A DNA stretch of 64,000 bases from Alphaproteobacteria bacterium. Its GTDB lineage: Bacteria > Pseudomonadota > Alphaproteobacteria > VGDZ01. The notes below the pieces were generated by a model. The model had not been told where the DNA came from. It saw only the letters and a list, made by a program, of their open reading frames with translations, and made no database searches. Both the position numbers and the translations under genes were made by a program. Below are positions 16,582-34,761 of this stretch, in pieces. The DNA is taken from positions 18,804 to 82,803 of the forward strand of contig VGDZ01000003.1 of NCBI GenBank assembly GCA_016869515.1, given 5' to 3'. Each line of letters begins with the position of its first letter. The stretch's first letter is position 1.

Positions 16582-16743
16582 CGCGTTTTCCCCCGGCTGA
16601 AACGTTGACGATGGAGCATGATTCGAAATGCTAGAGGATGAATCGGACCGGCGCCAGAGTGTCTTCCATTCCACCGCCTGGGCGCGCGCTTGACGAAATC
16701 GGCGCGGATGCGAAAGTCCGCCAGCGGAACGGAGGACAGGTCG

Positions 16744-17631: not shown

Positions 17632-17644
17632 GCGGAGGCACGAG

Positions 17645-18322: not shown

Positions 18323-19242
18323 GCGAGGCCCCGCGACGGGCCGAGCCCGGGCTTTACGATTTCGTCCCGCCGCCCAAGCGTCCGCGCATCACATGGCCGA
18401 ACGGCGCGCGGCTGGCGTTCTGGGTCGCGCCCAACATCGAGTTCTACGAGCTCGATCCGCCGCCCAACGCCGCCCGCAACATGTGGACCCGACCCAACCC
18501 CGACGCCATGAACTATGGCTGGCGCGAATTCGGCAACCGGGTCGGCGTGTGGCGCATGATCGACGTCATGGCCGCGCTCGGCATCCGCGGCTCGGTCTCG
18601 CTCAACGTCGCCATCTGCGACCATCACCCCGAGATCGTCCGGCGCTGCCTCGACCTCGGTTGGGAGCTGTTCTCCCACGGCGTCTACAACACCCGCTTCG
18701 TCGCCAACATGAGCGAGGAGCAGGAACGCGCCATGATCCGCGACGTGGTCGACACCATCCGCCGCGCCTCGGGCCAGCAGGTCGAGGGCTGGCTGTCGCC
18801 GGCGCTGTACAACAACGACCGCACCATGGATCTCCTGGCCGAGCACGGCATCCGCTACACCTGCGATCTGTTCCATGACGACCAGCCGACCCCGGTGCGG
18901 ACCAAGACCGGGCGGATGTGCAGCATCCCCTATTCGCTCGAGATGAACGACATCCTGGTCTATGCGCGGCAGATGCAGACGCCGCGCGAATACGGCCGCA
19001 TGATCAAGGCCCAGTTCGACCAGCTCTACGAGGAGGGCGCCGAAAGCGGCACGGTGATGTGCGTGCCGCTGCATCCCTACATGGTCGGCCAGGCGCATCG
19101 GCTGGAGCCGTTCGCCGAGGCGCTGGATTACGTCGCGCGCCACGACAAGGTGTGGCTGGCGACCGGGGCCGAGATCGCGCGCTGGTATCTCGACCGTCAT
19201 TTCGATGCCGCGGTCGCCGCCGCGCGCGCCCCGGGAGGCTGA
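18319..19242 (+). CDS. Polysaccharide deacetylase (CE4 / PuuE-allantoinase-like) family protein, paralog 1
   Basis: GTG 18319 overlapping upstream stop (GTGA); the upstream part of the track ORF overlaps the isochorismatase gene; CE4-like motifs (WPNGARLAFWV, HH, LHPYMVG). Confidence 0.7.
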   Translation: MSEAPRRAEPGLYDFVPPPKRPRITWPNGARLAFWVAPNIEFYELDPPPNAARNMWTRPNPDAMNYGWREFGNRVGVWRMIDVMAALGIRGSVSLNVAICDHHPEIVRRCLDLGWELFSHGVYNTRFVANMSEEQERAMIRDVVDTIRRASGQQVEGWLSPALYNNDRTMDLLAEHGIRYTCDLFHDDQPTPVRTKTGRMCSIPYSLEMNDILVYARQMQTPREYGRMIKAQFDQLYEEGAESGTVMCVPLHPYMVGQAHRLEPFAEALDYVARHDKVWLATGAEIARWYLDRHFDAAVAAARAPGG

Positions 19243-19244
19243 CC

Positions 19245-20171
19245 ATGGCGCTGCCCGAGAGCTATCTGCAATATCCCCGCCGCGGTCCGGGCATGGATCA
19301 CGATTTCTATGCCTGGTCGCCGCTGCCAAATCGCAAGCCGATCCGATGGCCGCAAGGGGCACGCATTGCGCTGTGGGTCAACCTGACGGTCGAGCACTTT
19401 CCGCTCGACGCGGTCAACAAGCCGTTCCTGCCGCCGGGCGGGCTCGAGCGCGCCTATCCCGATCTCTGGAACTACACCTTGCACGATTACGGCAATCGAG
19501 TCGGCGTCTACCGGCTCTATCGCATGCTCGAAGGGCTCGGGCTCAAGGCGACGGTGGCGATGAACGCAGCCATCGCCGATCGTTATCCCTTTCTTGTCCA
19601 GGATACGGCGCGCCGGGGCCATGAGATCATGGCCTGCGGCGTCGACATGAACCGATTGCATCACTCCGGCCTTGCGATCGAGCGCGAGCGCGAGTCGATC
19701 GGAACCTCGGTCGAGACCCTGCGCCGCGCCTCGGGGCAGAAGGTGCGCGGCTGGATGTCGCCGGCCAAGGCCGAGAGCTTCAACACGCTCGGGTTGCTGC
19801 GCGAGCACGGCATCGACTATGTCTGCGACTGGCCCAACGACGACCTGCCCTATCCGCTGACCGGGCCGGCCGCTGGCCTTCACGCCATGCCGCATGCCTC
19901 CGAGCTGTCGGATCTGTGGTGCCTGCATCAATGGCATCACACCACCGACGAATTCGCCCAGCAGATCGGCGACCAGTTCCGGCTGCTCCATGCCGAGGCG
20001 GCGAAATCGGGCGGGCGGGTGATGAGCCTGACCCTGCACCCGTGGATCGCCGGACAGCCGCATCGCATCCGCCCGATCCGCGAGGCGCTGGCGGCGATCC
20101 TCCGCCATGCCGGGGTGTGGAACGCGACCGGCGCCGAGATCCTGGACGCCTTCAAGGCCCAACCCGGCTGA
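19245..20171 (+). CDS. Polysaccharide deacetylase (CE4 / PuuE-like) family protein, paralog 2
   Basis: ATG 19245 two nt after paralog 1 stop; parallel architecture to paralog 1 (WPQGARIALWV, LHPWIAGQPHR). Confidence 0.75.
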   Translation: MALPESYLQYPRRGPGMDHDFYAWSPLPNRKPIRWPQGARIALWVNLTVEHFPLDAVNKPFLPPGGLERAYPDLWNYTLHDYGNRVGVYRLYRMLEGLGLKATVAMNAAIADRYPFLVQDTARRGHEIMACGVDMNRLHHSGLAIERERESIGTSVETLRRASGQKVRGWMSPAKAESFNTLGLLREHGIDYVCDWPNDDLPYPLTGPAAGLHAMPHASELSDLWCLHQWHHTTDEFAQQIGDQFRLLHAEAAKSGGRVMSLTLHPWIAGQPHRIRPIREALAAILRHAGVWNATGAEILDAFKAQPG

Positions 20172-20176
20172 ACGCC

Positions 20177-21439
20177 ATGGGCATGACCGCGCTGGAAAAG
20201 ATCTTCGCCCGCGCCAGCGGGGCGAAGTCGGTCGCGCCCGGCGATCTGGTGGTGGTCAACGTCGACACCGTGGTGATGCTCGACAGCAGTTTCTTTCCCT
20301 CGGTGCGGCGCGAGGTGGTCAAGGTCCACGATCCGCGCAAGGTGGCGGTGATCTACGATCATTTCGTGCCGGCGCCGGACGAAAAAGCCGCCGCCGCCCA
20401 GGCCTATGGCCGCGCCTTCGCGCGCCGCTTCGGCATCGAACGCTTCCACGACGTCGGCCCCGATCAAGGCATCAGCCACGCCGTGGTGGCGGATCACGGC
20501 TATGCCCTGCCGGGCAGCGTGCTGGTGTGCTCGGATTCGCACACTTGCGCCTCAGGGGCGTTCAACTGCGCCGCGCGCGGGATCGGCGCGCCCGACATGA
20601 TCTATGCCCTGACCACCGGCCAGACCTGGTTCCAGTTGGGCGGCACGGTGCGCTACGACCTGAGCGGTCGCCTGCGGGCAGGGGTCTCGGCCAAGGACGT
20701 GTTCCTGCATCTGGCCGGAACCTACGGCGATCACGCCAATTGCAATATCGAGTTCGGCGGCCCGGCTTTGGCCGATCTTGGCATCGGCGCGCGGCGCACG
20801 CTGGCGGCGATGGGCGCCGAGCTGAGCGCCGAGTTCGTCACCTTCGAGCCCGACCAGGCGCTGATCGACTACGTCAAGGCGCGCAATCCGGCGCCGTTCG
20901 AGCCGCAATACCCCGATGCCGAAGCGCGCTATCTCGACCGCCGCCGGGTCGATCTGGGCGCGATCGAGCCGCTGGTGGCGCGGCCGGACTCGGTGATCCG
21001 CAATTCGGTCGCGGTCGGCGCGGTCGCCGGCCAGCGCATCGACCAGGCCTTCATCGGTTCCTGCGCCAACGGCTCGCTCGACGACCTGGCCGAGGCGGCG
21101 CGCATCGTCGCAGGCCGCAAGGTGGCGCGCGGCGTGCGCTTCCTGGTGACGCCGGGTTCGCAGCGGGTCTATGCCGCCGCGCTGAAGGCAGGCCATGTCC
21201 AGACCTTGACCGAGGCCGGCGCGGTGGTCACCGCCGCCACCTGCGGCGCCTGCTTCGGCGGCCATATGGGCGTGCTGGGTCCGAACGAGGTCTGCATCAC
21301 CGCCTCGACCCGCAACTTCAAGGGCCGCATGGGCGCGGCCAGCGCCCGCATCTTCATGGCCTCGCCGGCGACGGTCGCCGCCTCGGCCATCGCCGGCAGC
21401 ATCGTCCATCCCGGCGAGTTCGCGGGAGGGCGCGCGTGA
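20177..21439 (+). CDS. Aconitase-family dehydratase large subunit (LeuC / dimethylmaleate hydratase DmdA-like, short ~420-aa type)
   Basis: ATG 20177; Fe-S cluster ligand motifs VCSDSHTC, IGSCANGS and TCGACFG. Confidence 0.8.
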   Translation: MGMTALEKIFARASGAKSVAPGDLVVVNVDTVVMLDSSFFPSVRREVVKVHDPRKVAVIYDHFVPAPDEKAAAAQAYGRAFARRFGIERFHDVGPDQGISHAVVADHGYALPGSVLVCSDSHTCASGAFNCAARGIGAPDMIYALTTGQTWFQLGGTVRYDLSGRLRAGVSAKDVFLHLAGTYGDHANCNIEFGGPALADLGIGARRTLAAMGAELSAEFVTFEPDQALIDYVKARNPAPFEPQYPDAEARYLDRRRVDLGAIEPLVARPDSVIRNSVAVGAVAGQRIDQAFIGSCANGSLDDLAEAARIVAGRKVARGVRFLVTPGSQRVYAAALKAGHVQTLTEAGAVVTAATCGACFGGHMGVLGPNEVCITASTRNFKGRMGAASARIFMASPATVAASAIAGSIVHPGEFAGGRA

Positions 21440-21930
21440 TCGCCGGCCGGGTGTGGAAGTTCGGCGACGACATCAACACCGATCTGATGCTGCCGGGATC
21501 GGTGCTGTATGCCTCGGAGGAGGAACAGAAGCGCGCCGTGTTCGCCGCCAACCGACCGGGCTGGGTCGATCAGGTCAAGCCCGGCGACGTGCTGGTGGGC
21601 GGGCGCAATTTCGGCATGGGTTCGAGCCGGCCGGCGGCGCGGTCCTTGCGCAACCTCGGCCTCGCCTGCGTACTGGCCGAGTCGATCAACGGCCTATTTT
21701 TCCGCAACGCGGTCAATTTCGGCCTGATCGCCTTGGCCTGCCCGGGCGTGCACGCGGCGTGCGAGGAGGGCGACCGGTTGGAACTGGCGATCGCGGATTG
21801 GCGGGCAAGCAACGCACGGACCGGCGTGGCGCTTGCGGTGACGCCGATCCCCGAGGCGCTGCTCAAGCTGATGACCGGCGGCGGCATCTACCCGCATCTC
21901 GAGCAGCGCGGCCTGATCCTGCCGCGTTGA
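21436..21930 (+). CDS. Aconitase-family dehydratase small subunit (LeuD/DmdB-like)
   Basis: GTG 21436 overlapping large-subunit stop (GTGA); 164 aa; swivel-domain motif NFGMGSSR. Confidence 0.75.
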   Translation: MIAGRVWKFGDDINTDLMLPGSVLYASEEEQKRAVFAANRPGWVDQVKPGDVLVGGRNFGMGSSRPAARSLRNLGLACVLAESINGLFFRNAVNFGLIALACPGVHAACEEGDRLELAIADWRASNARTGVALAVTPIPEALLKLMTGGGIYPHLEQRGLILPR

Positions 21931-21939: not shown

Positions 21940-22956
21940 TCAACTCTTCCGTTCCGTCTGCCAAGTATCCGGATCGCGTGCGCGGCGGCGGAATTCCTCG
22001 ATCCGGTCGAGGCGATGGCAGGCAGCGTGGCGTCCCGGCTCGACTTCGAGCAGCGCGGGTTCGGCCTCGCTGCAATGGTTCTCGGCAAACGGACAGCGCG
22101 GCGCGAAGCGGCAGCCGGCGGGCGGCGTCACCAGATCCGGCGGCGCGCCGGGGATCGAGATCAGCGCGCGCCCGCCGTCGTCGAGATCGGGAAAGGCATT
22201 GCACAGCCCGAGCGTATAGGGATGCAGCGGGCGTTCGAACACGGCGCGATCCCCGGTTTCGACCGCTCTTCCGCCATACATCACGGCAATGCGGTCGCAA
22301 TTCTCGGCCACCACCGCCATGTCATGGGTGATTAGCAGCATGGTCTTGCGCTGCTCGCGGTGCAGCGAGCGGATGTGCTGCAGGATCTGGTCCTGGACGA
22401 CGACGTCGAGGCCGGTGGTCGGCTCGTCGGCCACGATCAGGTCGGGATCCAGCGCCATCGCCATGGCGATCATGGCGCGCTGGCGCATGCCGCCCGAGAA
22501 CTGGTGCGGATAGTCGTCGAGCCGTGCGATCTCCAACCCGACGCGGGCGAACAGCGCGGCGATCCGTTCGGCGCGCGCCGGCGCCGCCATGGCGCCGTGG
22601 GCCAGGATCGCTTCGTCGAGCTGGGCGCGGACGGTATAGACCGGATCGAAGGCGTTCATCGCGCTTTGCGGTACCAGCGCCATGCGCCGGCCGCGCAATT
22701 CCCGGGACCGCTCGGGATCGAGCGTCGCCAAGTCCTGGCCGCGAAACCGAATCCGGCCGGCGGCAATGCGGCCATTGGGCGGCAGGATGCCCATCACCGC
22801 CCGCGCGATGGTCGACTTGCCGCAGCCGGATTCGCCGACCAGGCCGAGGCATTCGCCTTCGGCCAGTGCCAGCGACACGCGATCGACCGCGCGCGCCTCG
22901 CCCTGGCGCGTGGCGTAGCGCACTTCCAGCCCTTCGAGCGCCAGCACCGGATCCAC
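21940..22956 (-). CDS. Dipeptide/oligopeptide-type ABC transporter ATP-binding protein (DppD/OppD-like)
   Basis: GTG 22956 three nt below the upstream permease stop; Walker [10 protein letters not shown], signature [16 protein letters not shown]-terminal oligopeptide-ATPase domain with CxxC; the upstream 260 aa of the track ORF overlap the permease in another frame. Confidence 0.8.
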
Positions 22957-22958
22957 GG

Positions 22959-23816
22959 CTAGACCGCGCGCAGCCGCGGATTGAGGATCTCTTCGTAGGC
23001 GCGGCCGACCATGAAGATCGCCATCACGAACAGCGACAGCGCCACCCCCGGCGGCAGCACCCACCACCACGCGGTACGCATGGCACCGGCGCGGAAGGCG
23101 GCATTGAGCATGATGCCCCAGCTTTGGGCGTGCGGATCGCCGAAACCGAGAAAGGACAGCGCGGCCTCGAGCATGACGCCGGTCTGCACGCCCACGGCGA
23201 CGTAGAGGAAGCTGAGCGGCAGCACGTTGGGCGCGATGTGGCGGAACAGGATCGCCCAATGGCCGGCGCCCGCGGCGCGCGCCGCCCAAACGAAAGGCCG
23301 CTCCTTGAGCGACAGCGTTTGGGCGCGGATCACCCGCGCCGTGGTCCGCCACAGGAAGAAGATCACCAAGAGGATCACCAGGCCGAGGCTGGGCTCGGCC
23401 ATGGCGATCACCACCAGCGCAAAAGGGAGGAACGGAATGCCGAAGGCGACGTCGGTCAACCGCATCAACACGTCGTCGATCCATCCGCCGAAATAGCCCG
23501 ATACCAGCCCGATCAGCGTCCCGACCACGACGCTGCCCAGCGCCGACAAGAGGCCGACCGTGAGCGCGACGCGCGAGCCCCATACCAACTGGCTGAACAC
23601 GTCCATGCCCTGATTGGTGGTGCCGAACCAATTGCGGGCCGAAGGCGGAGCCAAGCGCGGCACGCTGCGGTCGGGCCCGAACGCCACCTCGAACGGGCCG
23701 TAGGGCGCGATCAGCGGCGCGGCCACAGCCAATGCGACGAAACCGCATATCAGCGCCAAGCCGACCGCGGCCGAAGGATTGCGCCCAAGCACATCGAGGA
23801 AACGCGGCCCGGTCAC
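22959..23816 (-). CDS. Dpp/Opp-type ABC transporter permease (DppC-like)
   Basis: 285-aa TM protein with ATG 23816; typical binding-protein-dependent transport signature region. Confidence 0.85.
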   Translation of the reverse strand: MTGPRFLDVLGRNPSAAVGLALICGFVALAVAAPLIAPYGPFEVAFGPDRSVPRLAPPSARNWFGTTNQGMDVFSQLVWGSRVALTVGLLSALGSVVVGTLIGLVSGYFGGWIDDVLMRLTDVAFGIPFLPFALVVIAMAEPSLGLVILLVIFFLWRTTARVIRAQTLSLKERPFVWAARAAGAGHWAILFRHIAPNVLPLSFLYVAVGVQTGVMLEAALSFLGFGDPHAQSWGIMLNAAFRAGAMRTAWWWVLPPGVALSLFVMAIFMVGRAYEEILNPRLRAV

Positions 23817-23825
23817 CGGCCGATC

Positions 23826-24800
23826 CTACTCATAGGTAACCCGAGGATCGATCGCGCCGTAGAGCAGATCGGCGATCAGGTTCAAGGCCAAGGTCACCAG
23901 CGCCATCAGATAGAGCGCCGCTTGCGCCACCGGAAAATCGAGATGGGTCAGCGCCTGGACCAGCTCGCGTCCCAACCCCGGCCAGGCGAAGATGATCTCG
24001 AGCAGAACCTGGCCCTGGAACAGGATTCCGGTCATCACCGCGACATAGGTCACCAGCGGCAAGAGCGCATTGCGCGTGGCATGGACCACGATCCGGCCCT
24101 CGCCCAGCCCCTTGGCGCGCAACATGTCGAGAAAGTCGCTGCCCTTGACCTCCAGCATCGAGGACCGCAGCAAGAGGATCGGCCCGGTGATCTCGCGGCT
24201 GACCAGCACCAGCCCGGGCAGGACGAGATGCTTCCAATAGTCGGGCGAGGCCAGCATGCCCCACAGCGTGTCCGGCCCGCCCAGCGGCACCATCCCGCCG
24301 GGCGGCAGCCAGCGCAACTGATAGGAAAACACCATCAGCGCCAGGATGCCGACGAAGAAAGACGGCACCGAATGCAGCACCAGCGAGGTCGCCACCGCCG
24401 CGCGCTCGAACACGCTGCCGCGCGTCCAGCCGGCATAGGCGCCGATCAGGGTGCCGAACACCACGCTGACCAGCAGCGCCGGCACGATCATCAGGCAGGT
24501 GTTGCGGACCTTGTCGAGCATGATCTCGGCCACCGACTCGTTCTGAAAGAAAGGATGGCCGAAATCGAACAACAGCATGTTGCGCAGATAGCGCAGATAC
24601 TGCACCCACCACGGATCGTTCAGCCCCCACAGCATGCGCTGGCGCTGGATCATGTCCTCGGTGAAGTTGTTGTCGACGAAGATCGCGGTCGGATCGCCCG
24701 GCATCAGCTTGAACAGCAGAAACATGATGGTCAGGATGCACCAGACGACGAAGCCGGCTTGCGCCAGCCGTCGCAGCAAATAGCGCCGGAATCCCCCCAT
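23826..24800 (-). CDS. Dpp/Opp-type ABC transporter permease (DppB-like)
   Basis: 324-aa TM protein with ATG 24800. Confidence 0.85.
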   Translation of the reverse strand: MGGFRRYLLRRLAQAGFVVWCILTIMFLLFKLMPGDPTAIFVDNNFTEDMIQRQRMLWGLNDPWWVQYLRYLRNMLLFDFGHPFFQNESVAEIMLDKVRNTCLMIVPALLVSVVFGTLIGAYAGWTRGSVFERAAVATSLVLHSVPSFFVGILALMVFSYQLRWLPPGGMVPLGGPDTLWGMLASPDYWKHLVLPGLVLVSREITGPILLLRSSMLEVKGSDFLDMLRAKGLGEGRIVVHATRNALLPLVTYVAVMTGILFQGQVLLEIIFAWPGLGRELVQALTHLDFPVAQAALYLMALVTLALNLIADLLYGAIDPRVTYE

Positions 24801-24824
24801 GTGCCGTGACGCGCGCCCGGCGTC

Positions 24825-26657
24825 CTATCCGCCGAGCATCTTGAGTCCGCCCCAAGTCAGGCCAGGCTTCGAGACGCGGACCACGCGTTGCCGCCAGCCG
24901 GCGTTGACGGGCGCGGGATAGACCAACCGCCCATCGCTGGCCCAGGCGTATCCGGCCGCGCGCAGGATCTCGCGCGCCTTGCCGAGGTCGAAGCCCGGCA
25001 CCGCCGGCAGGTCGGGATTGTGCCAAGGATTGCCTTCGGCCAGGAAGGTGTTGGACTTGGGCACGCGGCCGGCGCCTTCCCAAGGAACCTTGACCAGGAA
25101 TTCGCGGTCGATGCTGTGCTGCCAGGCCAGGCGGAACTCGTAGTCGCGCCAGGGCAGCACCGAGGCCCGCACCACGCCGTGCAGCCAGTTGACGTCGGGC
25201 GTGCGCTCGATGCGCACATGCGAGGACTTGGCCAACTGGGCGGCCTGGCTCGGAGTCAGGCTGATATTGCTCGATTCGATGACGTCGATCTCGCGGCTCT
25301 CCAGCCGCCCCATCAGCCCGTCGAGCGAGGGCGTCACCACCACCCAGATGTCGTCGACTTGGGGCGGATCGAAGTGCTTCTTGTTGGCGATCAGCTGCAG
25401 CTCGGTGTCCTTGCGGTGCCGGCCGAAGCGATAGGGGCCCGAGCCGATCGGCGTGTCGATCCGCAACCGCCGCGGATCGCCGGCGGTGTTCTGCTCCTCC
25501 ATGATGTTGCCCCAGATGTGCTGGGGCAGGACGACGTTGAGCTGCATGAAATAGCTCTCGAACTGGCCGTAGGGCTGCTTGAATCGGGTACGCAGCACGC
25601 CATTGGCCTCGTCGACGATCTCGGCGCTTTCGAGGAAGCGGTTGGCGGTCCAGAATATGCCGCGCTCGTACTTGACCATGAAATCGAGGGTGAACTTGAG
25701 GTCGCGCACCGTCACCGGCCGGCCGTCGTGGAACTCCATGCCCTTGCGCAGGGTCAGGTCCCAAGTCCGCTCGTCCAGCCGCCGCCAGGATTCCACCGCC
25801 CAGGGGATGACGTTGAGGTTCTCGTCGTAATAGGCCAAGCGATCGTAGATCATGCGCCCGATGGCGCGCATGTTGTTGGTCGCGCCCAGGAGATTGGTGG
25901 TCTCGAGCAGGTTGGTCATGCCGACCCGCAGGCTCTTGCGATTGCCCTTGGGCTTGACCCGCGAGAAGCCGAGGAAGGCGTTGAAATTGCCAATACCGAA
26001 GCCGCGCGACTTGACGAAATTGTCCCAATCGCCGCCGTTATAGGCCTCGATGATCGAGGGCCCCCAGCCGAACACGCAGGGATAGAGATCCTCGGCCATG
26101 ACCCGCGCCGCCTCGCGCACCAGCTTGAGGCGCTCGGCCGGATCGCTGGCGGCGGATTGGCGGTCGATCAAGTCGTCGTATTGCTCGACCACCCATTCGC
26201 CGTAATTGCGGCGGTCGCTGCCATAGCCGCGCGAGACGATCCATTCCGCCGGATCGACCCGCTCGGGCCGGAGGACGGCGGGGTGGACCTCGATGTCGCC
26301 GTGGCGGTGGACGTTGATTTCCTCGAGCCAGCGCGCCTGGGACATCTGTTCGAGCTTGTAGCGCAAGCCCAGTTGCTCGCCGTCCTTGGACCATTTGCGG
26401 AAGGCATCCAGCCAGGCCGGCTCGGTATTGGGGATGATGACCCGGATCTCGGGCACGCGCTCGCCGGCCTGCGGCCAGGTCAGGCGCGCGGCCGTCTCCT
26501 TCACCCATTGCGGGTCCTTGATGTAGTAGCCGGCGACATCGTCGTAGAATTTGCGGTATTTGGGGTTGACGACATCGATCGCGGGCTCGGCCTGGGCCAA
26601 AGCCGGGCCGGCGGCACCGCTGGCGGCCATCAGCATCATCAGGCTGCGGCGATCCAT
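24825..26657 (-). CDS. ABC transporter substrate-binding protein, family 5 (DppA/OppA-like), Tat-type signal
   Basis: Start chosen at MDRRSLMMLMAASGAAGPALA (RR signal); alternative start at 26690; about 610 aa, typical for family 5. Confidence 0.8.
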   Translation of the reverse strand: MDRRSLMMLMAASGAAGPALAQAEPAIDVVNPKYRKFYDDVAGYYIKDPQWVKETAARLTWPQAGERVPEIRVIIPNTEPAWLDAFRKWSKDGEQLGLRYKLEQMSQARWLEEINVHRHGDIEVHPAVLRPERVDPAEWIVSRGYGSDRRNYGEWVVEQYDDLIDRQSAASDPAERLKLVREAARVMAEDLYPCVFGWGPSIIEAYNGGDWDNFVKSRGFGIGNFNAFLGFSRVKPKGNRKSLRVGMTNLLETTNLLGATNNMRAIGRMIYDRLAYYDENLNVIPWAVESWRRLDERTWDLTLRKGMEFHDGRPVTVRDLKFTLDFMVKYERGIFWTANRFLESAEIVDEANGVLRTRFKQPYGQFESYFMQLNVVLPQHIWGNIMEEQNTAGDPRRLRIDTPIGSGPYRFGRHRKDTELQLIANKKHFDPPQVDDIWVVVTPSLDGLMGRLESREIDVIESSNISLTPSQAAQLAKSSHVRIERTPDVNWLHGVVRASVLPWRDYEFRLAWQHSIDREFLVKVPWEGAGRVPKSNTFLAEGNPWHNPDLPAVPGFDLGKAREILRAAGYAWASDGRLVYPAPVNAGWRQRVVRVSKPGLTWGGLKMLGG

Positions 26658-26711
26658 CTTTGGACCTTTGAAGCGCTCTTGCCTGCTCATGTCGCGTCCC
26701 CTTCTTCTCGC

Positions 26712-27713
26712 TCAATTCCCCGACTTGCCACCAGCGACCGCACCGCGTGCGCGCGGATCGTAGACGCCCAACGACCGATCATAGCGCTCCAGCGTCTCGG
26801 GCGGCAGGTAGCGCTGTTCCAGCTCCTGAACCTTGGGAAAGCCGGTCATGTCGAAAATCCCGAAGCCACCCAATGGGTGGTTCTTGTGGCGCTGGGCGAA
26901 CTCATTGTAGGCGTCGTCGCCGCGGCGCCGGTAATCGAGCAGGAAATCGTGCATCAGGATGGCGCCGATCCGCGCCACGTGCACGCCGGTCACGCACATG
27001 CCGTATTCGCGCATCTCGGCGTCGCTGATCGGCGGGTCGATCGCCCAGGGCGTGATCTTGAGCAGGGCCTTGGGAAAGGCCTGCCGCACGGCGCCGATTT
27101 CCTCGCGCGACTGCAGCGCCTCGACATAGAGCATGTCGATGCCGGCATCGAGATAGGCGCGGCCGCGCCGCAGCACCTCGTCCATGCCGCCGCCGACGGC
27201 GCCGCGGGCGTCGGTGCGGGCGACGATGACGAAATCGGGATCGAGCGCGTCGCGTGTCTCGCAGGCGGCGCGGTACTTGCCGACCGCCTCCTCCAGCGGA
27301 ATCATCTCCTTGCCCTTGACGAAGCCGCAGCGCTTGGGCGCCACCTGGTCCTCGATGAACAGCGAGGCGGCGCCGGCGCGGATGATTTCGTCGACCGTGC
27401 GCACGACGTTGATAGCGTTGCCGAAGCCGGTGTCGCAATCGACCATCACCGGGATCGACACCGCCTGGCAGATGCGGCGGGTGTTTTCGACCAACTCGGT
27501 TTGCGTAAGAAAGCCGGCATCGGGCAACCCCAATAGATGTGTCGAGGTGTTCGAGCCCGAAATGCCGAAGAACTTGAAGCCGGTGGCCTCGGCCAGTTGG
27601 GCGTGATGGGCGGTGCCGCCCCAGATGCCGTGGATCGGCAGGGGGCCCTCGCGCAGCATGGCGCGAAAGGCCTTGGACGGCGAGCCCTGGATCGCCAGAG
27701 GACGGAGGCGCAT
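26712..27713 (-). CDS. PEP mutase / isocitrate lyase superfamily enzyme, paralog 2
   Basis: ATG 27713 (Met 50 of the track ORF) preceded by an AAGGAGA-like ribosome-binding site; motifs DCDTGFGN, FIEDQ, KRCGF. Confidence 0.8.
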   Translation of the reverse strand: MRLRPLAIQGSPSKAFRAMLREGPLPIHGIWGGTAHHAQLAEATGFKFFGISGSNTSTHLLGLPDAGFLTQTELVENTRRICQAVSIPVMVDCDTGFGNAINVVRTVDEIIRAGAASLFIEDQVAPKRCGFVKGKEMIPLEEAVGKYRAACETRDALDPDFVIVARTDARGAVGGGMDEVLRRGRAYLDAGIDMLYVEALQSREEIGAVRQAFPKALLKITPWAIDPPISDAEMREYGMCVTGVHVARIGAILMHDFLLDYRRRGDDAYNEFAQRHKNHPLGGFGIFDMTGFPKVQELEQRYLPPETLERYDRSLGVYDPRARGAVAGGKSGN

Positions 27714-27733
27714 GGCGGATTCTCCTTGCGGCG

Positions 27734-28750
27734 TCAGTTGAAACGCGGGTTCTCGATCAGATGGCAGGCGGCCTGGTGGCCCTCGCCGACCGCCACCGGC
27801 TGCGGCGCGACCTCGCGGCACAGCGTGCCGGCGTGCCGACAGCGGGGGTGGAAGTGGCAACCGCGCGGCGGGTCTATCGGGTTGGGCACCGCGCCCGGCA
27901 GGGCGATGCGCGCGCGCCGGCGTGGGCCCATCGCCGGCACCGCCGCCATCAGCGCCTGGGCATAGGGGTGCCGCGGCGAGTCGAGCACGGCGCGCGCCGG
28001 GCCGATCTCGACGATGCGGCCGAGATACATCACCGCCACGCGCCGGCAGATATGGCGCATGGTCGACAGGTCGTGCGAGACGTAGAGGATCGCCATCGCC
28101 TGCTCCTCGGCGAAGCGGCGCAGCAGGTTCAGGATTCCGGCCCGGATCGAAATGTCGAGCATCGACACCGGCTCGTCGGCCACCAGGAAACTGGGCTCGA
28201 CGGCGATGGCGCGGGCGATGGCGACGCGTTGCAATTGGCCGCCGGAAAGCTGATGCGGAAAGCGCTCGAGATAGGTCGCGACCGGACTAAGGCCGGCGCG
28301 CTCGAGCGCGCGCACTATTCGTTCCCGGCGTCCCGCCGGGCTGTCGTCGAAATGAATCGCCACCGGCTCGCCGACCGCGTCGGCCACGGTGAAGCGCGGA
28401 TTGAGCGCCTCATAGGGGTTCTGGAACACGATCTGGGCGCGGCGGCGGAATGCCTTGAGCCGCGCGCCCGAAAGTCCGGCGGTATCTTCGCCTGCAAATC
28501 GGATCTCGCCGGCGCTGGGCGAGAGCAGGCGCAGCACCGTCATGCCGGTGGTCGACTTGCCGCAGCCGCTTTCGCCGGCGAGGCCCAGCACTTCGCCCGG
28601 GACCAGGCTGAAGCCGACGCCGTCGACCGCGCGCACATGGCGTTCGACGGCGCCGGCCAGAGTCGCAATCAGGCCGCGCCGCACCGGAAACCATTTGCGC
28701 AGCGCCTCGACCGCGATCACCGGGGCGGGCCCCGGCGCCGGTGCGCTCAC
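27734..28750 (-). CDS. Dipeptide/oligopeptide-type ABC transporter ATP-binding protein (DppF/OppF-like)
   Basis: GTG 28750 overlapping upstream gene stop (GTGA); Walker [10 protein letters not shown], signature LSGGQLQRVAIARAI, Walker B LVADEPVSMLD; the upstream 160 aa of the track ORF are out-of-frame overlap. Confidence 0.8.
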   Translation of the reverse strand: MSAPAPGPAPVIAVEALRKWFPVRRGLIATLAGAVERHVRAVDGVGFSLVPGEVLGLAGESGCGKSTTGMTVLRLLSPSAGEIRFAGEDTAGLSGARLKAFRRRAQIVFQNPYEALNPRFTVADAVGEPVAIHFDDSPAGRRERIVRALERAGLSPVATYLERFPHQLSGGQLQRVAIARAIAVEPSFLVADEPVSMLDISIRAGILNLLRRFAEEQAMAILYVSHDLSTMRHICRRVAVMYLGRIVEIGPARAVLDSPRHPYAQALMAAVPAMGPRRRARIALPGAVPNPIDPPRGCHFHPRCRHAGTLCREVAPQPVAVGEGHQAACHLIENPRFN

Positions 28751-29688
28751 GGCCGGAAGCCGATCGAGCCCTCGTAACGTCGCTGCATCTCTTCGGTCGG
28801 CAGGTACTGTTCCTCGAGCTTGCGGATCGCGGGGAAGCCGACAAAGGTATGGAAATCGGCCGCCGGGTGGCCGTTGAGTTCCGGCTTGAGCCGCTCCTCC
28901 AGCGCCGCGTCCTCGCGCGCGAAATCGTGCAGATAGTCCCACATCGCCCGCGCCGCGGCGCGCATCGCGCCGCCGGCATTGGCGACCAGGAACACCTTCA
29001 TCTGGTTCATCTCGGCCAAGGTCAGGTTGGGCGAAACCCCGGTCCGGTTGTAGAGCAGCGGCGCCTTGACCTCGCGCGCCACCCGCTCCATCTCGGCGCG
29101 GCTCAGCAGGCCCTCGGGAAAGAACACGTCCATGCCGGCGTCGATGTAGGCCTTGCCGCGGCGGATGGTCTCTTCGAGGCTGCCGCCGGCAACGCCGCGC
29201 GCATCGCAGCGCGCGATCAGCACCACGTCCTTGTCGCAACGATCGCGCGTCGCCACCGCGGCGCGGTACTTGCCGACCGCTTCCTCCAGCGAGATGATCT
29301 GCTTGCCCGAGACGTGGCCGCAGCGCTTGGGCGCGACTTGGTCCTCCATGAACATGCCGCCGACGCCGGCCTTGATGAACTGCTCGACCGTGCGGATGGC
29401 GTTGATGGCGTTGCCGTAGCCGGTGTCGGCGTCGGCCATCACCGGAATGTCGACCGCATCGCAGACATAGCCGGTGACTTGCACCACCTCGCTCATCGTC
29501 GTCAGGCCGACATCGGGCTTGCCGATCAGCGTCGCCGACAGCGAATAGCCCGAGACGCCGACGGTCTCGAAGCCGGCCTTTTCGGCGATCTGCGCCGACA
29601 TGGCGTTGAACACGCCCGGCTGCACGTAGGTCTTGCCGCCCCGCAGCATTTCGCGGAAACGACGGGACATGCCCTTGAGTCCGGCCAT
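28747..29688 (-). CDS. PEP mutase / isocitrate lyase superfamily enzyme, paralog 3
   Basis: ATG 29688 (MAGLKGM); motifs DADTGYGN, FMEDQ, KRCGH; source gene of the remnant at 11855..11975. Confidence 0.8.
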   Translation of the reverse strand: MAGLKGMSRRFREMLRGGKTYVQPGVFNAMSAQIAEKAGFETVGVSGYSLSATLIGKPDVGLTTMSEVVQVTGYVCDAVDIPVMADADTGYGNAINAIRTVEQFIKAGVGGMFMEDQVAPKRCGHVSGKQIISLEEAVGKYRAAVATRDRCDKDVVLIARCDARGVAGGSLEETIRRGKAYIDAGMDVFFPEGLLSRAEMERVAREVKAPLLYNRTGVSPNLTLAEMNQMKVFLVANAGGAMRAAARAMWDYLHDFAREDAALEERLKPELNGHPAADFHTFVGFPAIRKLEEQYLPTEEMQRRYEGSIGFRP

Positions 29689-29874
29689 CGGCGCCCTCCC
29701 TTGGCGATCGATCAAGATCGAGCGATGAGTGTCAAAAGCGCGCCTGGGCGAGTCAACCCGATTTTTCCCCATGACTGCCTGGCGAAAATAGGGTTGCCGA
29801 CAGCCGTGCATGTGCCCGTTCCGGGACTAGAATGGACCTCCGGCAACGAGGCCGATCGTCTTCGGGGAACGCAC

Positions 29875-31287
29875 ATGACCGGACCACGGACATTCTTCGA
29901 GAAGGTTTGGAGCGATCACGTCATCGCCGACCTCGGCGACAACACCGCGCTGCTGCAGATCGACCGGCTGTTCCTGCACGAGATGAGCGGCTCGGTGGCG
30001 ATGCGGCAGCTGGCCGAGTCCGGTCGCGAGCCGGCCATGCGCGAGCTGGTGTTCACCGTCATCGACCACGTCATCGACACCGCGCCCGGGCGCGGGCTCG
30101 ACCAGTCGCGCTCCAAGGCCGGCCCCGAGATGATCCGCGCGGCACGCGCGGGGTCGCGCAGATACGGATTCAATTTCGTCGACGTCGACGATCCCCGCCA
30201 GGGCATCGTCCACGTCATATCGCCCGAGCTGGGCGTGGCCTTGCCTGGATTGACCCTGGTTTGCGGCGACAGCCATACCTGCACCGTCGGCGGCGTCGGC
30301 GCGCTGGCCTGGGGCATCGGCTCGACCGAGGGCGAGCACGTGCTGGCGACGCAGACCCTGCCGCAAGTCAGGCCCAAGGCGATGCGGGTCAATTTCGAGG
30401 GCAAGCCGGCGAAGGGGGTCTATCCCAAGGACATGGTGCTGGCGTTGATCGGCAAGATCGGCGCCAATGGCGGCATCGGCTATGCGGTCGAGTTCGCGGG
30501 ATCGGCGATCCGCGAAATGCCGGTCGAGGGGCGGTTGACGATCTGCAACATGGCGATCGAGTTCTCGGCCAAGTACGGCTTCGTCGCGCCCGACGAGATC
30601 ACCATCGACTATCTCAAGGGCCGCGAATATGCGCCCAAGGGTGCGGCTTGGGAGGCGGCGGTGCGCTATTGGCGATCCCTGCCCAGCGATCCCGGCGCGC
30701 GTTTCGAACACGAAGTCACGGTCGACTGCGGCGGGTTGAGCCCGCAGGTCACCTGGGGCACCAGCCCGCAGCAGGTGGTCGGCATCGACGGCCGCGTGCC
30801 CGACCCGGCGTCGGCCGACGATCCCGGCACGCGGACGCTGATCGAACGCGCGGCCGAATACGCCAAGCTCAAGCCCGGCCAGCCGATCCAGGGCGTCAAG
30901 ATCGACGTCGCCTATATCGGCTCCTGCACCAATGCGCGGCTGTCGGATCTGCGCGTGGCGGCGAACGTTCTCAAGGGCAAGCGCATCGCCGGCGGCGTGC
31001 AGGGCATTTGCGTTCCCGGCTCGACCGCGGTCAAGCGTGCGGCCGAGGCCGAGGGTCTCGACCGCGTGTTTCGCGATGCCGGCTTCGAATGGCACGAATC
31101 CGGCTGCGCCATGTGCGGTCACATGGGCAACGACCGGCTGGCGGATTTGCGCGTGATCAGCACCACCAACCGCAATTTCGAGGGTCGCCAGGGGCCGGCC
31201 ACCCGCACCCATCTCGCCAGCCCGGCGACGGTGGCGGCGTCCGCGCTGCGCGGACAGATCGCCGACGTCCGCGGCCTGATCGGCTAG
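29875..31287 (+). CDS. 3-isopropylmalate dehydratase large subunit-like (LeuC, ~470-aa bacterial type)
   Basis: ATG 29875; motifs VCGDSHTCT, IGSCTNARLSD and CAMCGHMG (Fe-S ligands). Confidence 0.85.
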   Translation: MTGPRTFFEKVWSDHVIADLGDNTALLQIDRLFLHEMSGSVAMRQLAESGREPAMRELVFTVIDHVIDTAPGRGLDQSRSKAGPEMIRAARAGSRRYGFNFVDVDDPRQGIVHVISPELGVALPGLTLVCGDSHTCTVGGVGALAWGIGSTEGEHVLATQTLPQVRPKAMRVNFEGKPAKGVYPKDMVLALIGKIGANGGIGYAVEFAGSAIREMPVEGRLTICNMAIEFSAKYGFVAPDEITIDYLKGREYAPKGAAWEAAVRYWRSLPSDPGARFEHEVTVDCGGLSPQVTWGTSPQQVVGIDGRVPDPASADDPGTRTLIERAAEYAKLKPGQPIQGVKIDVAYIGSCTNARLSDLRVAANVLKGKRIAGGVQGICVPGSTAVKRAAEAEGLDRVFRDAGFEWHESGCAMCGHMGNDRLADLRVISTTNRNFEGRQGPATRTHLASPATVAASALRGQIADVRGLIG

Positions 31288-31296: not shown

Positions 31297-31944
31297 ATGG
31301 AAAGCCTGGTGCGGATCAAGGGCGTGGCGGCGCCGCTTTTGCGCATCAATGTCGATACCGACCAGATCATCCCGGGGCCCGAGATCATGGCCTCGGTCGA
31401 CGAGAGCTATGCGCGCTGGGGCACCGGCCTGTTCGCTTATTGGCGCTATCTCGACGGCGCCGGTGGGGCGCACACGCCGAATCCCGAGTTCGTCCTCAAC
31501 CGGCCGCCCTATGACCGCGCCGTGATCCTGCTGGCGGACCGCAATTTCGGCTGCGGCTCCTCGCGCGAGCCGGCACCCAAGGCGCTGCGCGGCTTCGGAA
31601 TCCGTGCCGTGATCGCGCCGTCCTTCGGCGGCATCTTCTTCAACAACTGTTTCCGCAACGGGGTCCTGCCGATCGAGCTGTCGATCGAAGCGGTGCGCGA
31701 ACTGGCGGGCCAGGTCGAGCGCTCGCAAGGGCGCGGCGAGATATCTGTCGACCTGGAAGCCCAACGCATCACCGCGCCCGAAGGCGACGGCTACGGCTTC
31801 AGGACGCCGCCCTTGTTGCGACGCATGCTGCTCGAAGGCCTGGACGAGATCGGCGCCACGCTGGCTCGGCGCGGCGAGATCGAAGGTTTTCGCGGTCGAG
31901 ACCGATCGCGACGTCCCTGGGCCTATCGGCCCGGACTGGCTTGA
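31297..31944 (+). CDS. 3-isopropylmalate dehydratase small subunit-like (LeuD), copy 1
   Basis: 215 aa; NFGCGSSRE, APSFGGIFFNNCFRNG. Confidence 0.85.
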   Translation: MESLVRIKGVAAPLLRINVDTDQIIPGPEIMASVDESYARWGTGLFAYWRYLDGAGGAHTPNPEFVLNRPPYDRAVILLADRNFGCGSSREPAPKALRGFGIRAVIAPSFGGIFFNNCFRNGVLPIELSIEAVRELAGQVERSQGRGEISVDLEAQRITAPEGDGYGFRTPPLLRRMLLEGLDEIGATLARRGEIEGFRGRDRSRRPWAYRPGLA

Positions 31945-31955
31945 GAGGTGCCGCC

Positions 31956-32585
31956 ATGGAAAAACTGACCAAGATCTCGGCCATTGCCGCGCCGATGCTG
32001 CGCATCAACATCGACACCGACCAGATCATTCCCGCCCGCTTTTTGGTTCGCGTCACCAATGACGGCCTGGGCGAGGGCCTGTTTGCCGGCCAGCGCTACG
32101 GACGCGACGGCAAACCCAATCCCGACTTCATTCTCAATCGCGCGCCTTACGATCGCGCCGAGATCCTGCTGGCCGACCGCAATTTCGGCTGCGGCTCCTC
32201 GCGCGAGGCGGCGCCGATGGCGCTGCGGCAACGCGGCTTCCGGGCGGTGATCGCGCCCTCCTTCGGCGGCATCTTTTTCAACAATTGCTTTCGCAACGGC
32301 GTCGTTCCGGTCGAGCTGCCGATCGAGGCGGTGCGGCAGATCGCGGCCGAAGTCGAGGCGACGCAGGGCCAGGGCAAGGTCGGCGTCGATCTCGAAGGCG
32401 AGGCCGTGACCACGCCCAGCGGCGCGGTGTTCAAGTTCCGCTCGCCGCCGCTATTGCGCGAAATGCTGTTGGCGGGGGCGGACGAGGTCGATCTGACCCT
32501 GCGCCGCGGCGAACAGATCGGCGACTTTCGCGGCAAGGACTCGGCCAAGCGTCCCTGGGCCTATCGGCCGGGTCTGGCGAACTGA
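31956..32585 (+). CDS. 3-isopropylmalate dehydratase small subunit-like (LeuD), copy 2 (tandem duplicate)
   Basis: ATG 31956 preceded by GAGAGG; near-identical core motifs to copy 1 (NFGCGSSREAAP, APSFGGIFFNNCFRNG). Confidence 0.8.
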   Translation: MEKLTKISAIAAPMLRINIDTDQIIPARFLVRVTNDGLGEGLFAGQRYGRDGKPNPDFILNRAPYDRAEILLADRNFGCGSSREAAPMALRQRGFRAVIAPSFGGIFFNNCFRNGVVPVELPIEAVRQIAAEVEATQGQGKVGVDLEGEAVTTPSGAVFKFRSPPLLREMLLAGADEVDLTLRRGEQIGDFRGKDSAKRPWAYRPGLAN

Positions 32586-32622: not shown

Positions 32623-33852
32623 ATGACCGACGCGCAACGTCTTGCCGCGGGAGTCGATCCGCGCCGCGCGCTCGACTTTCTTGCCGCGATGGTTCGCCAC
32701 AAGAGCTACAGCAATACGCCGGGTGAGACCGAGCTTGCGCGCTTCATGGTGGCGGAAATGCAGAAACTCGGCATGGATGCGCGCCTGCAGCCGGTCGAGG
32801 GCGAGCGCTGCAACGCCATCGGCGTGTGGAAGGGCACGGGCGGCGGCAAGAGCCTGCTGTTCAACGGCCATCTCGATACCAATCCCGTCACCGGCGGCTG
32901 GACGGTCGATCCCTGGGGCGGGTTGGTAGACGACAAATTCATTTACGGCATCGGCGTCTCCAACATGAAGGCGGGCGACGCCGCTTATTTCTGCGCCGTG
33001 CGCAGCTTGATCGAGAACGGCGTTCGGCTGCGCGGCGACGTCGTCCTGACTTATGTTGTCGGCGAGTTGCAGGGCGGGGTTGGCACCATCAAGGCGATCG
33101 AAGCGGGCATTCGTGCCGATTATTTCATCAATGCCGAGCCGACCGACATCGCTGCCCTGACCTTGCACGCCGGCGCGTTCAACTGGACGGTCGAGCTCGA
33201 AGGCGTCACCCGCCACGTCTCCAAACGCGAGCAGGCCTGCGATGCGCTGCAGGCCGCGTCGGTGCTGGTGCCGCGACTGAACGCGCTTGAATTCAGCGGC
33301 GCCGCCAGCGAGGAGCACCGAGCCGTCAACCGCTGCCATGTCGGCGTGATGCGTTCGGCGCTGACGCCGGAATTCCACGATTGGCGCCCGCCGCAGGTAG
33401 CCGATTTCGCGCGACTGATCGGTACCGGTCGCTACGCCCCCAGCCAATCCGAGGACAGCGTCCTGGCCGACATTCGCCGCGAACTTGATTGGTTGCAACG
33501 CGAGTTTCCCGGCCTCAAGGCCAAGGTCGAACGCCAGCGCACCGGCCAGGTACAGCGGGCCTCGATGCTGCCCTTCGAGGTCGACCGATCCAGCCCGATC
33601 GTGCAGGCGATCAACGCCGCCCATCGGGCCGTCCGCCGAACGCCGCAGCCGACCGGTGCGATCGCGCCGCAATGCTATTACGGCACCGATGCCGCGCACC
33701 TGCAGCATCGCGCCGGAATGCAAGGCATCGTCTGCGGCCCGGGCGGCCGTTACAACACCATGCCCGACGAACGTGTGGACATTGTCGACTATCTCGACGC
33801 CGCCAAGATCTATCTCTTGACCGTGCTCGACATCTGCGGCCGGTCCGCCTAG
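32623..33852 (+). CDS. M20-family metallopeptidase / deacylase (ArgE/DapE/ACY1-like)
   Basis: 409 aa; metal-binding motifs NGHLDT, GVSNMKAG, and C-terminal YGTDAAHL. Confidence 0.8.
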   Translation: MTDAQRLAAGVDPRRALDFLAAMVRHKSYSNTPGETELARFMVAEMQKLGMDARLQPVEGERCNAIGVWKGTGGGKSLLFNGHLDTNPVTGGWTVDPWGGLVDDKFIYGIGVSNMKAGDAAYFCAVRSLIENGVRLRGDVVLTYVVGELQGGVGTIKAIEAGIRADYFINAEPTDIAALTLHAGAFNWTVELEGVTRHVSKREQACDALQAASVLVPRLNALEFSGAASEEHRAVNRCHVGVMRSALTPEFHDWRPPQVADFARLIGTGRYAPSQSEDSVLADIRRELDWLQREFPGLKAKVERQRTGQVQRASMLPFEVDRSSPIVQAINAAHRAVRRTPQPTGAIAPQCYYGTDAAHLQHRAGMQGIVCGPGGRYNTMPDERVDIVDYLDAAKIYLLTVLDICGRSA

Positions 33853-33999: not shown

Positions 34000-34761
34000 A
34001 TGGCGCGAGTTGGAAAACCGCGCGGCTCGAGCCGGCGCGACCACTTCGGCGATGCGGTCTACGCCCAGATCAAGGCCGACATCTTCGACTTTCGCCTGCT
34101 GCCCGGCGCCCGCTTCTCGGAAAACGAGGTCGCCCGGCGGGCGCGCGTTTCGCGCACGCCGGTGCGCGAGGCACTGATGCGGCTCGAGCGGGAGGGCTAT
34201 CTTCAGGTCCACGCCAAGAGCGGTTGGAGCGTCTGCCCGCTCGATTTCGCGCAGTTCGACCACCTCTACGACCTGCGCGTCGTGCTCGAACTGGCGGCGG
34301 TGCAGAAGCTGTGCGCCGGCAAGGACATCGCCGCCCTCGATCGGCTGCGTGCGATCTGGCTGGTGAGTCCGTCCCTGCGCGTGGTCGACGGCGCCAAGCT
34401 GGCCCGGATGGACGAGGAGTTCCACTCGACCCTGGTCGCCGCCGCCGGCAATCCCGAAGTCGCGCGCATCCATCACGGCATTACCGAGCGCATCCGCATC
34501 CTGCGGCGGCTCGACTTCACTCATCCCGAACGCATCATCTACACCTATCGCGAACACGCCGAGATCCTGCGCGCGCTGCTGGCGCGCGACGCCGATCGCG
34601 CCTCGGCTTTGTTGCGCGCGCATATCGAGGCCAGCCGGGCGGTGGTGCAGACCATCACCCTGCACCGGCTGCACCTTGCGCATCTCGATGCCAAACCGTC
34701 TGCCAGGACCAACGGGGCCGCACGCAAGCCGGCCGCCGCGCGTGCCCCTCGCCGGCGCTAG
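34000..34761 (+). CDS. GntR-family transcriptional regulator (FadR/FCD subfamily)
   Basis: N-terminal wHTH (EVARRARVSRTPVREAL) and helical FCD-type C-terminal domain. Confidence 0.85.
   Translation: MARVGKPRGSSRRDHFGDAVYAQIKADIFDFRLLPGARFSENEVARRARVSRTPVREALMRLEREGYLQVHAKSGWSVCPLDFAQFDHLYDLRVVLELAAVQKLCAGKDIAALDRLRAIWLVSPSLRVVDGAKLARMDEEFHSTLVAAAGNPEVARIHHGITERIRILRRLDFTHPERIIYTYREHAEILRALLARDADRASALLRAHIEASRAVVQTITLHRLHLAHLDAKPSARTNGAARKPAAARAPRRR

Follow-up and report, generated by a model that had tools for sequence, protein, structure and literature searches.

We examined a gene cluster in a 64,000-nucleotide stretch of alphaproteobacterial DNA (contig VGDZ01000003.1; the whole stretch is hereafter called the window), where positions 21940-29688 of the minus strand carry a Dpp/Opp-type ATP-binding cassette (ABC) transporter together with two paralogous lyases of the isocitrate lyase (ICL)/phosphoenolpyruvate (PEP) mutase superfamily. 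In transcriptional order, the seven genes encode PM3 (28747..29688, 313 aa), a lyase paralog with a Pfam PEP_mutase domain, an EDQVAPKRCGH loop and a DADTGYG metal motif; a DppF-type ATPase (27734..28750, 338 aa, ABC_tran and oligo_HPY domains), which is the first transporter gene; PM2 (26712..27713, 333 aa), a lyase paralog with a PEP_mutase domain, an EDQVAPKRCGF loop and a DCDTGFG motif; a periplasmic binding protein (SBP; 24825..26690, 621 aa, SBP_bac_5) with an RR-containing signal peptide; a DppB/OppB-type permease (23826..24800, 324 aa, BPD_transp_1 and BPD_transp_1_N); a DppC/OppC-type permease (22959..23816, 285 aa, BPD_transp_1 and OppC_N); and, last in the operon, a DppD-type ATPase (21940..22956, 338 aa, ABC_tran and oligo_HPY). 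The transporter genes are abbreviated below as A (SBP), B and C (permeases), D and F (ATPases). An earlier reading of the sequence (the original prediction) had proposed this order and strand, and searches with Pfam and NCBIfam confirmed the identity and position of all seven genes. The same reading had placed the SBP gene between 26657 and 24825; its end stands, while its start is more likely at 26690, which matches a public gene call of 621 aa (P0121).

The codon-position GC pattern, which cleanly separates coding frames in this window of ∼67% G+C, indicated minus-strand coding throughout 21940-29688. PM3 starts with an ATG at 29688, preceded by a GGGAGG ribosome-binding site, and its public homologues are 313 aa long. 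The spacing is operon-like, with consecutive genes from PM3 to D separated by −4, 20, 21, 24, 9 and 2 nt, the first value reflecting a GTGA overlap between the stop of PM3 and the start of F. The cluster is bounded by two plus-strand genes, one convergent and ending at 21930, the other divergent and starting at 29875. No terminator-like sites were found between the operon genes; all eight that were detected lie within coding sequence (4.4 ± 2.2 expected). The same scan returned a single promoter-like site, which lies within the gene for permease B; an Rfam search of the window gave no RNA family.

All parts of a PepT-type importer are present, namely a cluster-C (family-5) SBP, OppB- and OppC-type permeases, and D and F ATPases with oligo_HPY domains. 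The canonical A-B-C-D-F order of PepT importers is replaced here by PM3-F-PM2-A-B-C-D. The top NCBIfam matches of the F-type ATPase are DppF-type (PRK11308, 336 bits; DppF, 290 bits) and those of the D-type ATPase are DppD/OppD-type (294 and 291 bits), the two proteins being 42% identical to one another. Integrity of the ATPases had been suggested as a check, and both proved intact, retaining Walker A, Q-loop, signature (LSGGQ / FSGGM), Walker B, D-loop and H-loop. In the C-terminal region, each also has four cysteines whose spacing matches that of the [4Fe-4S] ligands in E. coli DppD and DppF (PMC12136057); in the D-type protein these are Cys282, Cys288, Cys295 and Cys313, with the spacing of the DppD ligands. 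The likeness to E. coli DppABCDF and the PepT family (TC 3.A.1.5) thus extends from the family-5 SBP and the two permeases, with their BPD_transp_1_N and OppC_N extensions, to the pair of ATPases, each with oligo_HPY and four cluster-binding cysteines. In contrast to the A-B-C-D-F of E. coli, the genes run F-(lyase)-A-B-C-D, enzyme genes lie within the operon, the SBP is circularly permuted and ∼100 aa longer, and the cargo is probably not a peptide. Scores against the NCBIfam equivalog models stayed below the cut-offs both for the SBP (nikA, 84 against 393 bits; DppA, 35 against 1005; CntA, 40 against 800; GsiB, 25 against 594) and for the ATPases (DppF, 290 against 660; DppD, 294 against 541), and no peptide, opine, nickel, glutathione or staphylopine equivalog was above its cut-off for either.

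The SBP itself departs from its family in chain order. The Pfam SBP_bac_5 match is limited to residues 294-590, and what is the C-terminal part in canonical DppA/OppA-type proteins is found here in the first ∼250 residues. A profile of the family matched three canonical-order SBPs as two pieces in swapped order, with profile positions 283-591 aligning to the N-terminal and middle regions of the canonical proteins and positions 109-233 to their C-termini (i-Evalues 1e-9, 2e-6 and 4e-3). Furthermore, when a canonical SBP sequence was doubled, a single profile alignment spanned the junction. Residues 40-250 gave only 63 matches among 1.84 billion cluster representatives; this segment is N-terminal in most of the full-length matches and C-terminal in four (P0279, P0293, P0295 and P0303). 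Permuting the SBP manually did not raise its scores against PDB sequences, where two pieces of DppA aligned collinearly, the second weakly (i-Evalue 2.7). These alignments identify the 621-aa SBP as a circular permutant of the family-5 (cluster C) fold. No solved structure was found to share its chain order, and a literature search returned no description of permuted cluster-C binding proteins. The permuted form also occurs in relatives of ∼30% identity from Firmicutes, Synergistetes and Deltaproteobacteria, and since these are collinear with the query SBP the permutation is older than the relocation of F described below.

Synteny was compared by scanning one genome per species with an alignment of the SBP and mapping neighbouring genes by BLASTP against the window proteins, so that these loci were gathered through the SBP. 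Proteins of at least 54% identity (loci L012-L046) define a clade of ∼620-aa SBPs, and relatives of 27-34% identity (L047-L091) represent a more distant group. This comparison, also proposed at the outset, showed the same order recurring in independent assemblies and isolates. PM3-F-PM2-A-B-C-D is found unchanged in another assembly at ∼80% protein identity (L002) and in Lautropia (L037); F-PM2-A-B-C-D is found in the isolates Verticiella sediminum and Bradyrhizobium sp. LHD-71 and at L018, L028, L030, L031 and L032. The recurrence of one order in independent genomes places the arrangement far beyond chance. Across the ∼620-aa clade, F lies upstream of the SBP gene in every locus (∼35 loci): directly upstream, with no lyase between, in 21 of them, and with PM2 alone in between in about nine more. 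B-C-D follows A on the same strand or is convergent with it. Members come from Alpha-, Beta- and Deltaproteobacteria of soil and freshwater, culturable strains such as V. sediminum DSM 27279, Bradyrhizobium sp. LHD-71 and Neoroseomonas terrae LMG 31159 included, and this breadth of conserved synteny upheld the proposal that the lyases are functionally tied to the transporter.

The distant relatives are all A-B-C-D-F and have no lyase or LeuCD genes. Because of this, and because the window F and D are 43-55% identical to their F and D, the F gene is taken to have been relocated, at the base of the clade, from the 3′ terminus of the operon to its 5′ terminus. The original prediction had attributed the separation of the two ATPase genes to an insertion or rearrangement. 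A rearrangement does underlie it, as the A-B-C-D-F relatives of ∼30% identity indicate, yet it was not an event in this genome, since the tree described below suggests that the layout is ancestral to the clade. Insertion of lyase genes between D and F fails as the explanation: in 21 loci F adjoins A directly, so that D and F are separated there with no lyase gene between F and A. Adjacency of D and F is accordingly no fixed rule of Dpp/Opp operons.

Whether both ATPases serve one transporter can be judged from the same loci. The two genes are 4777 nt apart, and if F were an orphan, or partnered elsewhere, its place among the lyases would be incidental; this 4.8-kb gap, the loci in which F-A and B-C-D form two units on opposite strands (L024, L027, L033 and L038-L043) and the related clusters whose permeases have no ATPase nearby (L006) could be read in that sense. 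However, when the 64-kb window was searched with the seven operon products, only one Opp-type permease pair and one family-5 SBP came up. Exactly two oligo_HPY ATPases are encoded there, one D-type and one F-type, and the three further ABC ATPases are at most 35% identical, sit in operons of their own and belong to other ABC families. The window thus holds no second Opp-type permease set, in line with the earlier assignment of both ATPases to one importer. Moreover, F stands beside the SBP gene at every locus of the clade, and the window F and D form an orthologous pair, each being 43-55% identical to the F and D of the outgroup A-B-C-D-F operons. E. coli DppBCDF requires both ATPases, each bearing a [4Fe-4S] cluster (PMC12136057), and this dependence of assembly on both subunits likewise speaks against separate transporters, an arrangement we regard as very unlikely. 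Taken as a whole, the best explanation, and in our judgement a probable one, is that the seven genes would constitute one operon encoding a complete Dpp/Opp-type (PepT-family) ABC importer, BCDF plus SBP, with two built-in lyases.

The history of this layout was examined in a neighbour-joining tree of the SBPs, rooted on the A-B-C-D-F outgroup with 100 bootstraps. The ingroup was monophyletic in 100/100 replicates. PM2-bearing loci L031, L032 and L034 were basal (73/100), the PM2 clade that includes the window was sister to a clade with F-A only (96/100), and the PM2-bearing L028 and L030 grouped with another F-A-only clade (100/100). This topology suggests that F-PM2-A-B-C-D is ancestral to the clade and that PM2 was lost at least three times. 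PM3 seems to be a later addition upstream of F, in the window, L001, L002, L037 and L046 and, separately, in L028 and L030. The gene order of the window is thus an inherited and probably ancestral layout of a distinct transporter clade, marked by the ∼620-aa permuted SBP and the F-first order. Two simpler accounts of PM2 were tried and set aside. PM2 as a derived insertion in a subclade was rejected, because in the rooted, bootstrapped tree the PM2 lineages are basal and scattered, and PM2 itself is monophyletic. An invariable association of PM2 with this SBP was rejected as an ascertainment artefact, as four PM2-type genes sampled independently lie beside TctBAC (L094), near a TctC gene, beside a canonical-order Dpp system (S. 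meliloti, L092) and in a region ridden with insertion sequences (L093).

Recent rearrangement at this locus, or a chimera in the metagenome assembly, would account for the order in this contig alone. The contig is indeed metagenome-assembled, and a 140-nt partial copy of PM3 lies 17.5 kb away, a sign of recent DNA shuffling. This relic (11837-11975, minus strand) is 93.6% identical in nucleotides to 29392-29531 and 82% identical over 49 codons; it is intergenic, with a polar-amino-acid ABC operon on one side and an RraA-like aldolase gene on the other. Nevertheless, the identical order in independent assemblies and isolate genomes, as well as a GC content and codon-position pattern that are uniform across the junctions, leave such an artefact with next to no credibility. 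Two further observations concern individual loci. The chromosome of a Burkholderiales metagenome-assembled genome (CP070753.1; L001, 10001-12461) contains a decayed module, in which GntR-LeuC-LeuD-LeuD is divergent from PM3, F and a truncated PM2 of 142 aa; the genes that come next are unrelated, with no SBP, permeases or D. Tandem or split duplicate matches within single loci, for PM2 in L028 and L031 and for the SBP in L023, L030 and L044, may be duplications or frameshifts.

The lyases were assigned by domain scores and active-site motifs. A third paralog, PM1, is encoded in the convergent plus-strand region (16690-21930), which also holds an isochorismatase-family hydrolase gene, two genes of the PuuE-like polysaccharide-deacetylase family and a HacA/DmdB-type LeuCD pair. 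Pfam PEP_mutase scores were 165.5 bits for PM3, 137.8 for PM2 and 145.4 for PM1, against a gathering score of 31.5. With NCBIfam prpB (TIGR02317, cut-off 354.4) PM2 scored 192, PM3 225 and PM1 238 bits, none reaching the cut-off. The gating loops read KRCGH in PM3, KKCGH in PM1 and KRCGF in PM2, the last keeping the cysteine and exchanging histidine for phenylalanine, and the lyases contain the metal-binding motifs DADTGYG / DCDTGFG and EDQ. PM2 is 45.6% identical to PM3 and comes from a distinct orthologous group, whose observed members are monophyletic and have an invariant KRCGF and DCDTGFG signature; in the PM2-type lyase of L094 the loop is KRCGY, tyrosine replacing histidine. The nearest solved relatives of the PM proteins are methylisocitrate lyase, petal death protein, 2,3-dimethylmalate lyase and oxaloacetate acetylhydrolase. 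PM1, PM2 and PM3 therefore belong to the C-C lyase branch of the superfamily, a placement read from these motifs and relatives, with C-C bond cleavage as their predicted activity.

The name PEP mutase under which these genes were first listed is misleading, as the proteins fall in the C-C lyase branch. It would be apt if the PM genes served phosphonate metabolism, as PEP mutase, phosphonopyruvate hydrolase or CPEP mutase, in an operon that imported or made phosphonates. The Pfam family bears that name, the NCBIfam CPEP_Pphonmut model is matched at 150-188 bits, and one homologue is annotated as a carboxyvinyl-carboxyphosphonate phosphorylmutase. When TIGR02320, TIGR02319 and TIGR02321 were all tested, however, every score was below the cut-off (PEP_mutase, 90-98 against 319.55 bits; CPEP, 150-188 against 420; phosphonopyruvate hydrolase, 110-113 against 374). 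The catalytic cysteine of the lyase branch, present in a K-R-C-G loop, the lyases among the top solved relatives, the aconitase-family and PrpD-family dehydratases among the partner genes, and the lack of phosphonate pathway genes among the window products scanned all make a phosphonate function extremely unlikely.

Upstream of PM3, a divergent intergenic region (29689..29874), a putative promoter/operator, separates the operon from a plus-strand unit. It contains an inverted repeat, CAACCCGATTTT-N19-AAAATAGGGTTG (29754-29796), and the promoter scan found no consensus sigma-70 site in it. The divergent unit encodes a LeuC-type large subunit (29875-31287, Aconitase domain), two LeuD-type small subunits (31297-31944 and 31941-32585, Aconitase_C domains) and, as its last enzyme, an ArgE/DapE-type M20 deacylase (32623..33852, Peptidase_M20; ArgE/DapE family matches below the cut-offs); a GntR/FCD-family regulator with GntR and FCD domains follows at 34000..34761. 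The LeuC, which is of bacterial type, scored 662 bits with NF009116 (cut-off 531) and 559.6 with the TIGR00170 leuC equivalog (560.25), and LeuD1 matches the ‘LeuD/DmdB family’ model. The context of LeuC is catabolic, in that it is divergent from an importer, accompanied by two LeuD copies, and no leuA or leuB was seen in the window. Divergent LeuC/LeuD genes likewise occur at L001, L002, L009, L010 and L037; the LeuC-LeuD-LeuD triplet is common to the window, L001, L002 and L037, while Verticiella has a single LeuD. A GntR/FCD gene flanks the module at L001, L009, L010, L037, L092 and L094, and the protein is likely to be its regulator. The M20 deacylase is not conserved in related loci and is therefore probably a lineage-specific addition.

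The company kept by the transporter at other loci bears on its cargo. Lyase paralogs and LeuCD pairs are its constant neighbours and flank most loci of the clade, and where they are missing, MmgE/PrpD-family genes stand on one or both sides of the transporter. The smallest conserved locus, in Verticiella, consists only of GntR, LeuCD, PM2 and the transporter, with no hydrolase or oxidase. At L094 (7089-14197) the core of GntR-LeuC-LeuD and a PM2-type lyase is kept and TctB-TctA-TctC replaces the ABC importer, the same core lies near a TctC gene on another contig, and a DctP gene follows the SBP gene at L011. At L004 (6992-11971) a PM3-like lyase, TctC, lyase and TctC alternate beside a third lyase and a LeuCD pair; lyase paralogs interleaved with transporter components thus recur there with a different transporter class. 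Such replacement of the ABC importer by carboxylate-specific tripartite tricarboxylate transporter (TTT) systems, along with the aconitase- and PrpD-family partners, makes a substituted malate- or citrate-type polycarboxylate, rather than a peptide or opine, the likely cargo.

The original prediction had called the cargo peptide-like or opine-like, a view to which the Verticiella locus, the PrpD-family partners and the TctABC-served core lend no support. The principal alternative is a wider version of it, in which a peptide-, N-acyl-amino-acid- or opine-like conjugate is imported and a deacylase frees the acid for LeuCD and the lyases. Family-5 SBPs classically bind peptides, opines and metal-opine complexes, and the PDB matches of the SBP include AppA, DppA, AccA, AgaA, MoaA and CntA; an M20 ArgE/DapE-type deacylase gene follows LeuCD, and many other deacylase genes lie within 25 kb. 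On the other hand, neither the M20 enzyme nor the other hydrolases are conserved with the transporter, Verticiella manages with GntR, LeuCD, PM2 and transporter, sister loci have PrpD-family enzymes, and elsewhere this enzyme core is paired with TctABC/TctC carboxylate transporters. Furthermore, no opine oxidase or dehydrogenase was present among the 57 window products scanned, and the NCBIfam peptide, opine and nickel equivalogs scored far below their cut-offs. The opine and metallophore SBPs of family 5 (AccA, AgaA, MoaA, CntA, NikA and EppA) differ from the SBP described here in having the canonical chain order and other operon partners, none of them being linked to lyase/LeuCD modules. We hold a conjugate cargo to be unlikely, though it deserves to be kept in mind.

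A polycarboxylate cargo invites comparison with three known systems. The methylcitrate cycle (PrpB with PrpD/AcnB or AcnD/PrpF) similarly joins a K-R-C-G-H lyase of the ICL superfamily to a dehydratase/hydratase that prepares a cleavable hydroxy-tricarboxylate, and PrpD-family or aconitase-family partners occur at loci related to the window module. In contrast to that cycle, PM1-3 score 192-238 bits against the 354 of prpB, PrpC and PrpE are absent here, and the hydratase is of LeuCD type; the window products scanned included neither a citrate-synthase-like protein nor a PrpD. A further difference is the dedicated importer, which implies an exogenous substrate. In the nicotinate fermentation of Eubacterium barkeri, dimethylmaleate hydratase (LeuCD/DmdAB type) acts together with 2,3-dimethylmalate lyase. 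The parallel lies in a two-subunit aconitase-family hydratase feeding an ICL/PEPM-family lyase; the top solved relatives of PM3 include a dimethylmalate lyase from a fungus, and LeuD1 matches the LeuD/DmdB model. The window differs in having no other nicotinate-pathway genes, an aerobic proteobacterial host and a coupled ABC importer. Lastly, the TctABC locus L094 has the same lyase, LeuCD and GntR set in the same divergent layout, differing in its secondary TTT transporter and in its loop (KRCGY against KRCGF).

From these parts a catabolic route can be proposed. The SBP would capture a substituted malate- or citrate-type polycarboxylate in the periplasm and BCDF would import it. The divergently transcribed LeuCD-type hydro-lyase would isomerise or hydrate the acid to a cleavable hydroxy-acid isomer, whose Cα-Cβ bond would then be cut by PM2, plus PM3 in this lineage, yielding a small 2-oxo acid or glyoxylate and a carboxylic acid. 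The GntR/FCD protein would control both divergent units. In its fullest form, which we put forward tentatively as a possibility, the proposal describes a new PepT-type importer clade (permuted SBP, F-first order and a built-in KRCG[F/Y] lyase) that would import polycarboxylates resembling alkylmalates or citrate, such as 2-alkylmalates from plants or fungi or acids of the methylcitrate type, into a LeuCD/PrpD and lyase pathway.

Several points weigh against this proposal. Co-transcription of the seven genes is deduced from their spacing, and the substrate class from guilt by association; a literature search returned nothing on this module, neither ligand nor enzyme nor genetic reports. The trees are neighbour-joining only, with a distant outgroup root and 73% support for the basal node, and PM2-type genes sampled independently of the SBP are not always beside this transporter. 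The chemistry of PM2 may be different, given its phenylalanine where characterised lyases have the loop histidine. Finally, the divergent unit of the window contains the M20 deacylase, and four AstE/AspA paralogs, an amidohydrolase, two PuuE-like deacetylases and an isochorismatase are encoded nearby; with so many deacylases and amidases in the window, an amide-linked or N-acylated precursor is possible in this organism.

The core of the original prediction, a rearranged transporter operon welded functionally to lyases, was nonetheless borne out by the conserved synteny, and its most novel elements are the permuted SBP and the PM2 lyase subgroup. For family-5 ABC systems, ‘peptide/nickel transporter’ is the routine annotation, and the consistent wiring of this clade to citrate/alkylmalate lyases and dehydratases makes it probably wrong for the members of the clade. 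Were the proposed route true, the ‘peptide’ transporter family would gain a new class of substrates, and the catabolic route itself would be new. Confirmation would bring a novel carbon-source pathway complete with importer and a novel ICL/PEP-mutase lyase subgroup with the loop histidine replaced by phenylalanine or tyrosine. It would also provide a naturally occurring circular permutation of the cluster-C fold, relevant to studies of protein evolution and to the design of biosensors.

Other features were recorded beside the main subjects. In L006 (6193-19603), a canonical-order family-5 SBP gene and two permease genes without an ATPase gene are followed by three sets of lyase and LeuCD and by an HMGL-like gene (isopropylmalate/citramalate-synthase type). 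Within the window, a stretch of ∼1.6 kb without a called gene (55683-57321) has the lowest GC (0.61-0.63) and directly precedes hydantoinase A/B genes. An unusual pile-up of deacylases on the plus strand (2516-7776), downstream of a PotABC-like ABC system, comprises four AstE/AspA-family (succinylglutamate desuccinylase/aspartoacylase) paralogs around an Amidohydro_1 gene. A nitrogen-heterocycle or oxamate-type set occupies 34877-42051 and encodes a xanthine/uracil permease, allophanate hydrolase, and FdrA-like, AllG-family and carbamate-kinase-like proteins.

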